From the NCBI RefSeq assembly GCF_022846255.1, contig NZ_AP025682.1: DNA of 64,000 nt; one strand, 5' to 3'. Position 1 is the stretch's first letter. Every line of letters begins with the position of its first letter. The position numbers and the translations under genes were made by a program. Of this stretch, positions 4,045-40,296 are shown one piece after another. The notes beneath the pieces were generated by a model. That model was not told the DNA's origin and ran no database searches. It saw only the letters and a list, made by a program, of their open reading frames with translations. Source of the stretch: Escherichia coli (GTDB taxonomy: Bacteria > Pseudomonadota > Gammaproteobacteria > Enterobacterales > Enterobacteriaceae).

Positions 4045-4080
4045 TGCAGCCCGGATGAGGCATTCACGCCGCATCCGGCA
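4045..4080. repeat. REP-like palindromic element downstream of purL
   Basis: GCCGGATG...CATCCGGC imperfect palindrome typical of enterobacterial REP units. Confidence 0.4.
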
Positions 4081-4103
4081 TTAAGCACCAACCGCTATTA
4101 TGA

Positions 4104-4127
4104 GCTCCCAACTTCGGGAGCTTTTTT
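4104..4127 (+). terminator. intrinsic terminator of purL
   Basis: GCTCCC-aacttc-GGGAGC hairpin immediately followed by TTTTTT. Confidence 0.6.
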
Positions 4128-4128
4128 G

Positions 4129-4242
4129 TGTCTGTAAATCACGACAATGGGTGGTTTGCCGTGTCGCTTTTTGGTGACACTTAACTCATTGATTTTAATA
4201 TTATCTAATAAGTTTATCTTAAGTTGTCTCTTTTTAGCGACA
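4129..4242 (+). promoter_or_regulatory. three TGTC-N10-GACA activator sites (GlrR/QseF-type) upstream of glmY
   Basis: TGTCtgtaaatcacGACA 4129-4146, TGTCgctttttggtGACA 4162-4179 and TGTCtctttttagcGACA 4225-4242, all with 10-bp spacers, 90-230 bp upstream of a sigma54 promoter. Confidence 0.6.
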
Positions 4243-4331
4243 CAGTGGCTGATTTACATTCAAATAGCGGAGAAGCCATAAACCCCTCAAAGCAGCGTAT
4301 AATCAGTATGTTACCAAACTATTTTCTTTAT

Positions 4332-4351
4332 TGGCACAGTTACTGCATAAT
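4332..4351 (+). promoter_or_regulatory. sigma54 (-24 TGGCAC / -12 CTGCA) promoter overlapping a sigma70 -10 (CATAAT) for glmY
   Basis: TGGCAC at 4332-4337 and CTGCA at 4343-4347 (GG-N10-GC spacing), with CATAAT at 4346-4351, about 8 nt upstream of the glmY 5' end. Confidence 0.65.
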
Positions 4352-4358
4352 AGTAAGC

Positions 4359-4544
4359 AGTGGCTCATTCGCCGACTTATGTCAGCCCCTTCGGGACGTG
4401 CTACATAAAATTCGAATGACGCACAACAAGGTGCCTGCCGTCCAACTTCTGATATCAGCGTAGCTATATCAACCATCGGGCGAAACGTCGAGTTAGGCAC
4501 CGCCTTATTCCATAACAAAGCCGGGTAATTCCCGGCTTTGTTGT
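4359..4544 (+). ncRNA. glmY: GlmY small RNA (regulator of glmS via GlmZ/RapZ)
   Basis: Begins AGTGGCTCATTC..., about 185 nt, ends in AAAGCCGGG-taat-CCCGGCTTT hairpin plus U-run at 4518-4544; sits immediately upstream of glrK as in K-12; no credible ORF. Confidence 0.8.
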
Positions 4545-4600
4545 ATCTGAACTTCCCCTCGGTTAGCATCAGGCTATTCGCGTCTGACGAGAGTAACGCC

Positions 4601-36433: not shown

Positions 36434-36449
36434 TTTCTGGAAGCTAAAC

Positions 36450-38300
36450 ATGGCCTTATTACAAATTAGTGAACCTGGTTTGAGTGCTGCGCCGCATCAG
36501 CGTCGCCTGGCGGCCGGTATTGACCTGGGCACAACCAACTCGCTGGTGGCAACAGTGCGCAGCGGTCAGGCCGAAACGTTAGCTGACCATGAAGGCCGTC
36601 ACCTGCTGCCATCTGTTGTTCACTATCAACAGCAAGGGCATTCGGTGGGTTATGACGCGCGTACTAATGCAGCGCTCGATACCGCCAACACAATTAGTTC
36701 TGTTAAACGCCTGATGGGGCGCTCGCTGGCTGATATCCAGCAACGCTATCCGCATCTGCCTTATCAATTCCAGGCCAGCGAAAACGGCCTTCCGATGATT
36801 GAAACGGCGGCGGGGCTGCTGAACCCGGTGCGCGTTTCTGCGGACATCCTCAAAGCACTGGCGGCGCGGGCAACTGAAGCCCTGGCAGGCGAGCTGGATG
36901 GTGTCGTTATCACCGTTCCGGCGTACTTTGACGATGCCCAGCGTCAGGGCACCAAAGACGCGGCGCGTCTGGCGGGCCTTCACGTCCTGCGCTTACTTAA
37001 CGAACCGACCGCTGCGGCTATCGCCTACGGGCTGGATTCCGGTCAGGAAGGCGTGATCGCTGTTTATGACCTCGGCGGCGGGACGTTTGATATTTCCATT
37101 CTGCGCTTAAGTCGCGGCGTGTTTGAAGTGCTGGCAACCGGCGGTGATTCCGCGCTCGGCGGCGATGATTTCGACCATTTGCTGGCGGATTATATTCGCG
37201 AGCAGGCGGGCATTCCTGATCGTAGCGATAACCGCGTTCAGCGTGAACTGCTGGATGCCGCCATTGCAGCCAAAATCGCGCTGAGTGATGCGGACTCCGT
37301 GACCGTTAACGTTGCGGGCTGGCAGGGCGAAATCAGCCGTGAACAATTCAATGAACTGATCGCGCCACTGGTAAAACGAACCTTACTGGCTTGTCGTCGC
37401 GCGCTGAAAGACGCGGGTGTAGAAGCTGATGAAGTGCTGGAAGTGGTGATGGTGGGCGGTTCTACTCGCGTGCCGCTGGTGCGTGAACGGGTAGGCGAAT
37501 TTTTCGGTCGTCCACCGCTGACTTCCATCGACCCGGATAAAGTCGTCGCTATTGGCGCGGCGATTCAGGCGGATATTCTGGTGGGTAACAAGCCAGACAG
37601 CGAAATGCTGCTGCTTGATGTGATCCCACTGTCGCTGGGCCTCGAAACGATGGGCGGCCTGGTGGAGAAAGTGATTCCGCGTAATACCACGATTCCGGTG
37701 GCTCGCGCCCAGGATTTCACCACCTTTAAAGATGGTCAGACGGCGATGTCTATCCATGTAATGCAGGGTGAGCGTGAACTGGTGCAGGACTGCCGCTCGC
37801 TGGCGCGTTTTGCGCTGCGTGGTATTCCGGCGCTACCGGCTGGCGGTGCGCATATTCGCGTGACGTTCCAGGTCGATGCCGACGGTCTTTTGAGCGTGAC
37901 GGCGATGGAGAAATCCACCGGCGTTGAGGCATCTATTCAGGTCAAACCGTCTTATGGTCTGACCGACAGCGAAATCGCCTCGATGATCAAAGACTCAATG
38001 AGCTATGCCGAGCAGGACGTAAAAGCCCGAATGCTGGCAGAACAAAAAGTAGAAGCGGCGCGTGTGCTGGAAAGTCTGCACGGTGCGCTGGCTGCTGATG
38101 CCGCGCTGTTAAGCGCCGCAGAACGTCAGGATATCGACGATGCTGCCGCTCACCTGAGTGAAGTGGCGCAGGGCGATGATGTTGACGCCATCGAACAAGC
38201 GATTAAAAACGTAGACAAACAAACCCAGGATTTCGCCGCTCGCCGCATGGACCAGTCGGTTCGCCGTGCGCTGAAAGGCCATTCCGTGGACGAGGTTTAA
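36450..38300 (+). CDS. hscA: Hsp70-type chaperone HscA
   Basis: 616 aa from ATG 36450 ([10 protein letters not shown]); DnaK-like ATPase motifs ([17 protein letters not shown]). Confidence 0.96.
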
Positions 38301-38301
38301 T

Positions 38302-38637
38302 ATGCCAAAGATTGTTATTTTGCCTCATCAGGATCTCTGCCCTGATGGCGCTGTTCTGGAAGCGAATAGTGGTGAAACCATTCTCGACGTTGCGCTGCGT
38401 AACGGTATCGAGATTGAACACGCCTGTGAAAAATCCTGTGCTTGCACCACCTGCCACTGCATCGTTCGCGAAGGTTTTGACTCGCTGCCGGAAAGCTCAG
38501 AGCAGGAAGACGACATGCTGGACAAAGCCTGGGGACTGGAGCCGGAAAGCCGTTTAAGCTGCCAGGCGCGCGTTACTGACGAAGATTTAGTGGTCGAAAT
38601 CCCGCGTTACACTATCAACCATGCGCGTGAGCATTAA
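38302..38637 (+). CDS. fdx: [2Fe-2S] ferredoxin (adrenodoxin-type)
   Basis: 111 aa; Cys ligands [12 protein letters not shown]...C. Confidence 0.95.
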
Positions 38638-38648
38638 CAGAGGTTACT

Positions 38649-38849
38649 ATGGGACTTAAGTGGACCGATAGCCGCGAAATTGGCGAAGCACTGTACGATG
38701 CGTATCCCGATCTTGATCCGAAAAGGGTTCGATTCACCGATATGCATCAGTGGATTTGCGATCTGGAAGATTTCGACGACGACCCGCAGGCATCCAACGA
38801 AAAAATCCTCGAAGCGATTTTGTTGGTCTGGCTGGACGAAGCCGAGTAA
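38649..38849 (+). CDS. iscX: Fe-S assembly protein IscX
   Basis: 66-aa acidic protein [24 protein letters not shown] at the end of the isc operon. Confidence 0.93.
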
Positions 38850-38907
38850 ATGAACGGGCTGCCTGGGGGTAGCCCGTTTTGCTGTTAAACGAATAAGGAT
38901 AACTAAA

Positions 38908-40191
38908 ATGACAGAAGCGATGAAAATTACCCTCTCTACCCAACCTGCCGATGCGCGCTGGGGAGAAAAAGCAACTTACAGCATTAATAATGATGGCATT
39001 ACCCTGCATTTGAACGGGGCAGACGATCTGGGGCTGATCCAGCGTGCGGCGCGCAAGATTGATGGTCTGGGCATCAAGCATGTTCAGCTAAGCGGAGAAG
39101 GCTGGGATGCGGATCGCTGCTGGGCATTCTGGCAAGGTTACAAAGCCCCGAAAGGCACGCGTAAAGTGGAGTGGCCGGATCTGGACGATGTCCAGCGCCA
39201 GGAACTGGATAACCGCCTGATGATCATCGACTGGGTGCGTGACACCATTAACGCACCGGCGGAAGAGCTGGGGCCATCGCAACTGGCACAGCGTGCTGTT
39301 GATCTGATCAGCAATGTCGCGGGCGATCGTGTGACTTACCGGATCACCAAAGGCGAAGATCTGCGTGATCAAGGTTATATGGGACTGCACACGGTCGGAC
39401 GCGGTTCAGAACGTTCTCCGGTATTGCTGGCGCTGGATTACAACCCAACTGGCGATAAAGAAGCGCCAGTGTACGCGTGCCTGGTTGGTAAAGGCATCAC
39501 TTTTGACTCCGGCGGCTACAGCATCAAACAGACCGCATTTATGGACTCGATGAAGTCGGACATGGGCGGCGCGGCAACGGTTACCGGGGCGCTGGCGTTT
39601 GCCATTACGCGCGGACTGAATAAGCGCGTGAAGCTGTTCCTCTGCTGTGCGGATAACCTGATCAGCGGCAACGCGTTCAAACTGGGCGATATTATTACCT
39701 ATCGCAACGGTAAAAAAGTCGAAGTGATGAACACCGATGCCGAAGGGCGTCTGGTGCTGGCCGATGGCCTGATTGATGCCAGTGCGCAGAAACCGGAACT
39801 GATCATTGATGCGGCGACCCTCACCGGGGCGGCGAAAACTGCGCTGGGTAATGATTATCACGCGTTGTTCAGTTTTGACGATGCGCTTGCCGGTCGTTTG
39901 CTGGCGAGTGCCTCACAAGAGAACGAACCGTTCTGGCGTCTGCCGCTTGCGGAATTCCACCGCAGCCAGCTGCCGTCTAACTTTGCCGAACTGAACAATA
40001 CCGGAAGCGCGGCGTATCCGGCAGGTGCAAGTACGGCTGCGGGCTTCCTGTCGCACTTTGTTGAGAACTATCAGCAAGGCTGGCTGCATATCGACTGCTC
40101 GGCGACTTACCGTAAAGCGCCGGTTGAACAGTGGTCTGCGGGTGCTACGGGACTTGGTGTGCGCACGATTGCTAATCTGTTAACGGCGTAA
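38908..40191 (+). CDS. pepB: aminopeptidase B (M17 family)
   Basis: 427 aa; M17 motif NTDAEGRL. Confidence 0.95.
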
Positions 40192-40199
40192 ACTAATAT

Positions 40200-40296
40200 G
40201 CCGGATGCGGCGTAAACGCCTTATCCGGCCTACAAATTGCGAAAATCCAATAGATTGCGACTCCCTTGTAGGCCTGATAAGCGTGGCGCATCAGGC
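40200..40296. repeat. BIME (two inverted REP units) downstream of pepB
   Basis: GCCGGATGCGGCGTAAACGCCTTATCCGGCCTAC and GTAGGCCTGATAAGCGTGGCGCATCAGGC. Confidence 0.6.

Follow-up and report, generated by a model that had tools for sequence, protein, structure and literature searches.

Results

REP units in the window

The window, by which we mean the whole 64-kb stretch of DNA analysed, is a segment of the E. coli chromosome syntenic with 2.63-2.70 Mb of K-12, and the gene identities used here were taken from that synteny. We scanned both strands of the entire 64 kb, without filters, using a covariance model (R1) of 11 E. coli K-12 REPs, all of them from loci absent from the window. REP is the name used by Stern and Higgins and palindromic unit (PU) that used by Gilson and Bachellier; the types Y, Z1, and Z2 are defined in PMC3333891 and PMC8266576. 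Exactly six PUs were found, with scores of 30.3-56.6 bits and E-values from 8e-13 to 6.7e-6 (Table 1). Below E = 0.1, the scan of the 64 kb gave nothing further except weaker opposite-strand matches on the same six palindromes. When consensus probes were searched over the window with blastn-short, the same six units were recovered, and no others. All PUs lie outside long reading frames, starting 8-20 nt past stop codons and before the neighbouring genes.

Table 1. REP-related and neighbouring features of the window
Feature	Position	Strand	Basis
Y-type PU, single (purL 3' end)	4046-4080	+	R1, 30.3 bits, E 6.7e-6
Intrinsic terminator (purL)	4102-4131	+	8-bp GC-rich stem and T-run; terminator scan
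Degenerate REP-like perfect hairpin (glnB-hmp)	8642-8667	.	Sequence, hairpin census; GTTGCCGGATG-TGTC-CATCCGGCAAC
Y-type PU, single (yphB/yphA)	21758-21792	+	R1, 40.4 bits, E 1.4e-8 (21762-21792, local from model position 5)
Z2-type PU, long Z (trmJ-iscR)	32992-33029	-	R1, 38.7 bits, E 4.1e-8
Short (S-type) linker, 14 nt (trmJ-iscR)	33030-33043	.	Sequence; aligns with the 13-nt linker of K-12 units
Y-type PU (trmJ-iscR)	33044-33078	+	R1, 32.8 bits, E 1.5e-6 (match 33046-33078); all 11 pairs intact
Y-type PU, left (pepB-sseB)	40199-40233	-	R1, 56.6 bits, E 8e-13
L linker, 34 nt (pepB-sseB)	40234-40267	.	Between Y and Z1 of the element
Z1-type PU, short Z, 30 nt, right (pepB-sseB)	40268-40297	+	R1, 41.2 bits, E 9.1e-9
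88-codon ORF, ATG start, judged spurious	40205-40471	+	ORF list

Every PU forms a hairpin (-13.1 to -22.9 kcal/mol) with an internal 2x2 bulge (AA/GC mismatch), and its fold is more stable than those of dinucleotide shuffles (z = -3.2 to -5.6), except for the short Z1 unit (z = -1.9). Across 11 distinct units, 96.5% of stem cells were paired, and 4 of the 11 pairs carried both-side (compensatory) changes; in control registers slid by 1-3 columns, only 23-38% were paired. Identity of the window PUs to the published Y and Z2 types is 83-94% (PMC2817692 Table 1). REPs are a family with hundreds of dispersed copies in each genome. Of 5426 complete E. coli genomes, 5425 have the 40-nt Y unit of yphB at 40 or more places each, indicating that the Y unit is a high-copy dispersed repeat and not a chance palindrome.

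A preliminary description of this DNA had listed REP-like segments after purL, yphB, trmJ, and pepB. All four are present, with its boundaries off by 1-5 nt, and the check it named, a match to a REP consensus model, was passed at all four sites (R1, E <= 7e-6). We are therefore nearly certain that these segments are ordinary members of the E. coli REP/BIME family, comprising six canonical units at four intergenic sites. They consist of two solitary Y units (purL and yphB/yphA), one Z2-S-Y element of BIME-2 type, and one Y-L-Z1 element of BIME-1 type. REP/BIME repeats at these sites are already well known.

Solitary Y units and the glnB-hmp hairpin

The purL Y unit is located in the purL 3'UTR, with its first base 20 nt beyond the stop codon (4023-4025). 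It is identical to published Y at 30 of 35 positions, folds with -18.6 kcal/mol (z = -3.2), and has GCAG as its 5' tetranucleotide, not GTAG. The K-12 allele bears an 18-nt internal deletion, which is also found in roughly 60% of 5426 genomes.

The second solitary Y unit occupies the 47-nt gap between convergent yphB (stop 21749-21751) and yphA (stop 21799-21801). Its hairpin is the most stable of the six at -22.9 kcal/mol (z = -5.6), and its tetranucleotide is AAAT, GTAG being absent. Of the 5426 genomes, 5284 have the unit at this locus.

Between convergent glnB (stop 8627-8629) and hmp (stop 8674-8676), we also observed a perfect hairpin, which was missing from the earlier list and represents a seventh, degenerate palindrome at a fifth site. 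It reached only 11 bits with R1 (E about 0.8); it is REP-like but no canonical PU.

A BIME-2-type element at trmJ-iscR

BIME-2 elements combine Y and Z2 through a short linker and form tandem arrays of variable number (PMC3333891). What had been taken for a REP-like palindrome after trmJ does belong to the REP family, but it is not a lone unit; it is a two-unit element of this type (Z2, linker, and Y). The Z2 unit begins 8 nt past the trmJ stop (32982-32984), is identical to published Z2 at 31 of 37 positions, and folds with -19.5 kcal/mol (z = -4.2); its tetranucleotide is ACAG, not GTAG. The Y unit, which precedes the iscR ATG (33254) by about 175 nt, folds with -17.3 kcal/mol (z = -5.2), has CCAG as its tetranucleotide, and shows two compensatory stem changes (GTCGGAT/ATCCGAC and GGTG/CACC).

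Copy number at this locus differs among strains, as is typical of the REP family. In a spread sample of 60 genomes, loci of 501, 592, 683, and 774 bp, corresponding to one, two, three, and four units, were found in 29, 7, 7, and 1 genomes, respectively. The tandem unit is 91 bp, and we read three copies directly in K-12 and four in strain N61. In about a quarter of the sample (O157:H7 and others), the site holds an unrelated dispersed repeat instead.

A BIME-1 element between pepB and sseB

In a BIME-1, a single Y and a single Z1 lie in inverse orientation on either side of a long L linker (PMC3333891). The L linker of BIME-1 elements is conserved and often bears an IHF site. The BIME previously noted after pepB was borne out by R1 and is specifically of this type, with Y, a 34-nt L, and Z1. 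The Y unit begins 8 nt past the pepB stop (40189-40191), is identical to published Y at 33 of 35 positions and to the REP crystallised with TnpA_REP at 31 of 32, and folds with -21.3 kcal/mol (z = -4.8). The Z1 unit ends 35 nt before the sseB ATG (40333); its hairpin (-13.1 kcal/mol, z = -1.9) is, alone, not clearly more stable than shuffled sequence. GTAG is intact in both units (40230-40233, minus strand; 40268-40271, plus strand). The linker contains a candidate IHF site, ATCCAATAGATTG, with two mismatches to WATCAANNNNTTR, a motif for which matches with at most one mismatch arise about once per kb by chance. The element was found at the same site in at least 93% of 5426 genomes.

Possible transposase link and mobility

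By analogy, the units may be tied to the REP-associated tyrosine transposase (TnpA_REP/RAYT), either as its relics or as non-autonomous partners. The E. coli enzyme strictly needs GTAG, tolerating no mutation in it, and its binding requires both GTAG and the AA/GC bulge. Because GTAG is lost in four of the six units, the link would be historical at best for those four, and from their sequences the purL, yphB, and trmJ units are predicted not to be recognised by TnpA_REP.

We considered whether the units might instead be mobile today, as REPIN-like elements actively mobilised or amplified at these sites by TnpA_REP (RAYT). The range of one to four units at trmJ-iscR between strains fits such activity, as does the BIME-1 that follows glyA in K-12, which is absent from the window and from 64% of the 5426 genomes; moreover, both pepB units retain GTAG and the AA/GC bulge, and TnpA_REP recombines BIMEs in vitro (PMC3333891). 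However, the varying number of tandem copies and the 18-nt deletion in the purL hairpin are equally well explained by replication slippage or recombination, the tetranucleotide is mutated in the other four units, and no transposase-like gene is listed in the K-12 annotation of the syntenic region. The conservation of the same sites in at least 93% (pepB BIME-1) and 97% (yphB unit) of genomes points to old, static insertions. Current mobility thus seems unlikely.

Operon boundaries and termination

The preliminary description had further proposed that these elements mark operon boundaries. This held for yphB/yphA, which is a genuine convergent end, and probably for trmJ-iscR, where two tandem transcription units plausibly meet. 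It did not hold for purL, where an intrinsic terminator (-14.0 kcal/mol, z = -4.4) lies 22 nt downstream of the REP; the transcription unit actually ends at this separate terminator, so the REP itself sets no boundary there.

The claim probably fails at pepB-sseB as well. We found no promoter-like or terminator-like site next to the BIME, yfhJ(iscX)-pepB-sseB is reported to be co-derepressed with isc in iscR mutants (PMC4055776), and in row 207 of a published table a single unit ending after sseB comprises sseB, pepB, iscX, fdx, and hscBA. Taken together, these observations make it most likely that the BIME is intercistronic, and it probably lies inside an IscR-controlled transcript.

Rho-independent termination by the palindromes themselves, defining the purL, yph, trmJ, and pepB operon ends, is a very improbable explanation. 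The units are GC-rich hairpins shortly past stop codons, and a published set of bidirectional terminators separating convergent genes includes both REP185 and REP187 of K-12. By contrast, a T-run is missing after every REP hairpin, and no such hairpin was called by the terminator scan, whose sole match at these sites was the separate purL terminator; pepB and sseB are, in addition, apparently co-transcribed across the BIME. In the literature, most REPs have no poly-U tract, and their terminator activity is at most partial and Rho-dependent. The units described here do not reliably mark operon ends and are not operon-end signals themselves.

The open reading frame at 40205-40471

The preliminary description had dismissed this ORF as spurious and explained by the BIME. 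The explanation covers the ATG, which is GGATGCGG in the Y-unit stem, and the first third of the frame (92 nt in the BIME); the rest lies outside the element, as a 36-nt spacer and a final 139 nt overlapping sseB out of frame.

That the ORF is a genuine small protein gene is highly improbable. It starts with ATG and runs for 88 codons, and the frame is open in K-12 as well; yet the ATG sits within the Y hairpin stem with no upstream Shine-Dalgarno, the GGATGCGG start motif is common to every Y unit read in inverted orientation, the residues encoded by the linker diverge freely, and the end point is strain-dependent (88 codons versus 114 in K-12). The frame matched no Pfam family, and the K-12 annotation has no gene at this position; together with the out-of-frame overlap, these results also argue against a gene.

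A further reading takes the palindromes as unrelated inverted repeats that arose by chance, and in its favour is only the fact that short palindromes are generally common in GC-rich DNA. This reading can be dismissed given the E-values from an independent model, the copy number per genome, and a 13-mer core with 12 matches in the window (three exact ones inside REPs), a count reached in 0 of 100 window shuffles.

Discussion

Possible functions of the units

Stabilisation of messages, attenuation, stalling of ribosomes, and binding of IHF or gyrase are functions that we infer for these loci by analogy. Where transcribed as part of 3'UTR or intercistronic RNA, the PUs would form stable stem-loops. 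Such stem-loops may block 3'-to-5' exonucleases and so stabilise the upstream message. They could also serve as partial, often Rho-dependent, attenuators of read-through into downstream iscR and sseB, and might similarly attenuate read-through into convergent yphA and hmp. Stalling of terminating ribosomes may also occur at units that lie no more than 15 nt from a stop codon (yphB, trmJ, pepB, glnB, hmp, and yphA), under the 15-nt rule that PMC12306157 relates from Liang et al. 2015. Candidate protein sites on the DNA itself are the BIME-1 linker for IHF and the BIME-2 pair for gyrase, an enzyme described in the literature as binding and cleaving BIME-2.

REP325 acts as both terminator and stabiliser, and genome-wide trends have been described (bioRxiv 10.64898/2026.03.23.713779). 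The same study reports wide variance between loci and no general effect of terminal REPs on half-life; hence, any given unit may be neutral.

Comparison with known REP and BIME elements

The labels REP185 and REP187 of the K-12 annotation apply to orthologous hairpins in the window. REP185 (yphA/yphB) is the orthologue of the yphB unit, identical across the PU and at the same intergenic position. Similarly, REP187 (glnB/hmp), which is listed in the published table, is the orthologue of the 8642-8667 hairpin at the same intergenic position; the loop is TGTC in the window and, read on the same strand, TTTC in K-12 (GAAA as the table is oriented). Since this orthologue fails the canonical REP model, its REP label reflects a looser annotation standard.

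Like other BIME-2 elements (e.g., REP325, located between yjdM and yjdN), trmJ-iscR has Y and Z2 in inverse orientation, a short linker, and tandem copies that vary among strains. Unlike tandem BIME-2 arrays, the window has a single unit at this locus, and both of its tetranucleotides are degenerate.

The pepB-sseB element resembles BIME-1 (RIB/RIP) in being single copy at its locus, with inverse Y and Z1 whose GTAG feet face a 34-nt linker. The K-12 BIME-1 after glyA (glyA-yphH) is 85.8% identical over 106 nt to the whole pepB-sseB composite, linker included. The linkers of K-12 BIME-1 elements carry the IHF core with one mismatch, compared with two in the window, where the candidate site is weaker. 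Unlike other BIME-1 elements, this one lies between two probably co-transcribed genes and not at a transcript end.

As a group, the window units differ from canonical REP/PU in the loss of the 5' GTAG from four of six (GCAG, AAAT, ACAG, and CCAG), and the purL unit has, in addition, two mispaired stem positions. They otherwise resemble E. coli REP/PU of types Y, Z1, and Z2: they are imperfect palindromes of 30-38 nt with an AA/GC bulge, extragenic and just 3' of genes, present in high copy number, and close in sequence to the published Y and Z2 types.

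Canonical REP units in the window

REP-like palindromes had been described after purL, yphB, trmJ and pepB. Reading of the sequence confirmed that these four segments are present in the window and are classic REP sequences. As a consensus test set beforehand, we built a covariance model (R1) from 11 K-12 REPs at loci outside the window: REP137, REP162 (two units), REP165, REP171, REP180 and REP182 from a published table, the Y and Z2 units on either side of yafM (Nunvar et al.), and the BIME-1 that follows glyA in K-12. When all 64 kb were scanned on both strands with filters off, model R1 detected six units, with E-values from 8e-13 to 6.7e-6; save for weaker hits to these palindromes on the opposite strand, nothing else in the 64 kb had E < 0.1. 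The identical set of six was retrieved by blastn-short with consensus probes over the window. Comparison with K-12 REP annotation, using the published table, which covers only REPs in convergent terminators, showed REP185 and REP187 to be orthologous. The window is collinear with K-12 MG1655 at ~2.631-2.696 Mb, in reverse orientation and with 95-98% identity (core ~97%). Stop codons of the flanking genes were read directly from the window.

REP units, related hairpins and flanking gene ends, with the gap from stop codon to hairpin stem
Feature	Position	Strand	Gap	Remark
purL stop codon	4023-4025		~25 nt	
Solitary Y unit	4046-4080	+		20 nt past purL stop
purL canonical terminator	4102-4131			separate, downstream of purL REP
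glnB stop codon	8627-8629		12 nt	
REP-like hairpin GTTGCCGGATG-TGTC-CATCCGGCAAC	8642-8667			perfect 11-bp stem, glnB/hmp gap
hmp stop codon	8674-8676	-	6 nt	
glyA stop codon	11445-11447			
yphB stop codon	21749-21751		8-10 nt	
Solitary Y unit	21758-21792	+		fills 47-nt gap between convergent yphB and yphA; K-12 orthologue REP185
yphA stop codon	21799-21801	-	~5-6 nt	
trmJ stop codon	32982-32984		8 nt	
Z2 of trmJ BIME-2-type unit	32992-33029	-		begins 8 nt past trmJ stop
Y of trmJ BIME-2-type unit	33044-33078	+		after 14-nt linker; ends ~175 nt before iscR ATG
pepB stop codon	40189-40191		8 nt	
Y of pepB BIME-1-type element	40199-40233	-		begins 8 nt past pepB
Z1 of pepB BIME-1-type element	40268-40297	+		after 34-nt L linker; ends 35 nt before sseB
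sseB ATG	40333			

Every unit forms a stable hairpin (-13.1 to -22.9 kcal/mol), with z-scores of -3.2 to -5.6 except in the short Z1 unit (-1.9). In the 11 distinct units that the window and the syntenic K-12 DNA together provide, pairing extended to 96.5% of stem cells, and 4 of the 11 stem pairs had changed on both sides; in a control with registers shifted by 1-3 columns, only 23-38% were paired. The 40-nt unit at yphB occurs in at least 40 places per genome in essentially every E. coli genome. Six units represent an ordinary density, given the ~8-10 per 64 kb expected from the reported K-12 total of 584-697 (PMC3333891; bioRxiv 10.64898/2026.03.23.713779). Readings of the segments as intrinsic terminators, real genes or chance palindromes were rejected. 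A relaxed GCCGGAT...ATCGGGC core match at 16853-16886 was also discarded as a chance occurrence; it is not a palindrome and has no R1 score. Chromosomal REP/BIME repeats are occasionally plasmid-borne: plasmids carry 382 of the 217,389 places of the Y unit and a few hundred REP/BIME matches overall.

The preliminary description had overlooked one degenerate element, the hairpin between glnB and hmp. Its outer stem is common with REP and its K-12 orthologue is labelled REP187 in the published table; since it scores only 11 bits with model R1, we regard it as REP-like rather than as a canonical unit. Rfam holds no REP family, and a scan at the gathering threshold returned only glmY (4359-4506), the iscRS stability element (33743-33852, inside the isc operon), ryfA (41108-41412, minus strand), IS128 (41548-41724, minus strand) and sroE (54518-54609). 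No REP overlaps glmY, the iscRS element or sroE.

The GTAG tetranucleotide 5' of the unit is kept only in the two pepB-sseB units, and is replaced by GCAG at purL, AAAT at yphB, ACAG in the trmJ Z2 unit and CCAG in the trmJ Y unit. Binding and cleavage by E. coli TnpA_REP, the REP-associated transposase, need GTAG and tolerate no substitution; four of the six units are therefore presumably immobile relics. In the trmJ Y unit, all 11 pairs remain intact via two compensatory changes, suggesting that what persists is the hairpin rather than the transposase site.

Relation to operon boundaries

The elements had been proposed to mark operon boundaries, which holds for yphB/yphA, a true convergent end, but fails at purL and probably at pepB-sseB, and was over-generalised. 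The glnB/hmp junction is likewise a true convergent end, and the K-12 orthologues at both junctions appear in the published list of bidirectional terminators. The purL boundary is the downstream intrinsic terminator, and the REP sits within the 3'UTR. The trmJ-iscR junction is plausibly a boundary between tandem units. None of the REP hairpins of the window carried a T-run in a terminator scan.

The BIME between pepB and sseB is probably not a boundary, on four grounds. Its flanks lack sites resembling promoters or terminators. The yfhJ(iscX)-pepB-sseB genes are reportedly derepressed along with isc in iscR mutants of E. coli, and in Yersinia these genes are treated as part of the operon (PMC4055776). 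Row 207 of the published table gives sseB, pepB, iscX, fdx and hscBA as one unit ending at a hairpin past sseB, which corresponds to 41113-41134 in the window. Finally, REPs were first described as intercistronic, within operons. The BIME thus gives no basis for splitting the isc-hsc-fdx-iscX-pepB-sseB transcription unit. The DNA further downstream contains strong bidirectional terminator hairpins (41113-41134 and 41822-41859). The ryfA/timP-sseA region (41108-41860) shows small rearrangements relative to K-12, with 41396-41594 and 41785-41857 aligning to K-12 segments outside the main collinear alignment.

The open reading frame at 40205-40471

This frame, which had been called spurious and explained by the BIME, has 88 codons and an ATG start. 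The Y unit's GGATGCGG supplies the ATG, which lies inside the hairpin stem and has no Shine-Dalgarno sequence. The frame spans 92 nt of BIME, a 36-nt spacer and 139 nt over sseB in another frame, so that the BIME accounts for the start and the first third and leaves the remainder unexplained. In K-12 the same frame is open for 114 codons, and the linker-encoded part diverges freely. It has no Pfam match and no K-12 annotation, and is best treated as spurious. Neither this ORF nor the hairpins should be called genes or intrinsic terminators.

Variation between strains

Within this otherwise conserved core region, variation is greatest at the REP/BIME sites. In the purL 3'UTR, the Y unit of the window is complete; in K-12 it has lost 18 nt internally, a deletion that takes out one arm and the loop and destroys the hairpin (window 4050-4080 versus ~41600 in K-12 locus L001). 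Of 5426 complete E. coli genomes, 5425 contain a match to a 501-nt probe of the purL 3' end; the identity of only 90-95% seen in 3203 of them is attributable to this deletion. Counts taken from identity and coverage bands, and hence approximate, place the full-unit junction at ≥95% in ~1450 of the 5426 genomes and the K-12-like pattern in ~3350, that is, in most. At glyA-yphH (11448-11510), the window contains no BIME, only the bidirectional terminator hairpin AAAGGCTTCCTTCGGGAAGCCTTT (11471-11494); in K-12, a 104-bp BIME-1 is inserted between the glyA stop and this shared hairpin. The BIME-free junction is matched by 3492 genomes (64%).

The trmJ-iscR site holds one BIME-2 unit in the window, three in K-12 and four in strain N61. 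In a spread sample of 60 genomes, spans of 501, 592, 683 and 774 bp, representing one to four units, were found in 29, 7, 7 and 1 genomes, respectively. In 15 of the 60, including O157:H7, an unrelated dispersed repeat stands instead of BIME-2, indicating that the site hosts different repeat families by lineage. The O157:H7 repeat (205-325 of locus L005; window site 32985-33080), which we take to be BoxC-like, contains CCCCTCGCCCCTTCGGGGAGAGGGTTAGGGTGAGGGG and is found at 14 places per genome (median). In this allele, the position of the trmJ stop codon is changed as well. The yphB-yphA Y unit is at its locus in 5284 genomes (97%) and the pepB-sseB BIME-1 in at least 5064 (93%).

The iscX-pepB gap (38849-38889) was also found to differ: it is without a ~130-bp dispersed repeat that K-12 has (L001 6395-6525), presumably ERIC/IRU-like (central ...CCCCAGTCACATAGTTATCTATGCTCCTGGGG...), and retains only a short terminator-like hairpin, GGGCTGCC..GGTAGCCC followed by TTTT. 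In E. coli genomes the K-12 repeat occurs at a median of 12 places; 3257 genomes match it with ≥99% identity, meaning that about 40% of strains, the window's included, are without it at this locus.

Possible functions

By analogy with characterized REPs, transcribed units would fold into 3' stem-loops, which would hinder 3'-to-5' exonucleases and, often with Rho, partly attenuate read-through. Both activities were shown for REP325, although REPs vary widely from locus to locus and have no general effect on half-life (bioRxiv 10.64898/2026.03.23.713779), so that any single unit may be neutral. According to PMC12306157, citing Liang et al. 2015, a unit <16 nt away from a stop codon causes ribosomes to stall during termination and reduces translation; by the distance given there, all genes with a measured gap except purL lie within range.

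It seems to us unlikely that the site differences are functional cis-regulatory alleles tuning purL, glyA, trmJ/isc and pepB/sseB, rather than neutral, with the stop-proximal units of trmJ, pepB and yphB also throttling translation by ribosome stalling. Such alleles would comprise an intact or internally deleted purL hairpin; one to four BIME-2 units, or another dispersed repeat, ~100-175 nt upstream of the IscR-controlled isc promoter; and presence or absence of BIME-1 after glyA. The units responsible for stalling would be those located 8 nt beyond the stop codons of trmJ and pepB and 8-10 nt beyond that of yphB. The variable sites confound alignment-based identity figures, and would be natural candidates where strains differ in expression of the flanking genes.

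Comparison with known elements

Published unit lengths are 35 nt for Y, 29 nt for the short Z1 and 37 nt for the long Z2 (PMC2817692, PMC3333891). BIME-1, present as a single copy, combines Y and Z1 through a long conserved L linker that often bears an IHF site; BIME-2 combines Y and Z2 through a short linker in tandem arrays of strain-variable number (PMC3333891). It is likewise a published property of BIMEs that strains differ in tandem number and in whether an element is present (PMC3333891); gyrase binding by BIME-2 has also been published (PMC2817692) and by analogy may extend to the trmJ unit. IHF binding at the pepB-sseB L linker is uncertain: its core has two mismatches to WATCAANNNNTTR, versus one in K-12 linkers, against a high background match rate. 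Queried alone against 28 Gb, the 34-nt linker, too short for diverged paralogues, had matches in 1378 genomes, all at the orthologous locus.

The assignment to the REP/BIME family is correct, and everything seen fits published descriptions; apart from annotating the region correctly, it is of little consequence. Descriptions of REP/BIME elements go back to the 1980s, and REP labels are already attached to the K-12 orthologues of the yphB and glnB-hmp elements. K-12 carries a second BIME-1, after glyA, with which the pepB-sseB composite (including the linker) shares 85.8% identity.
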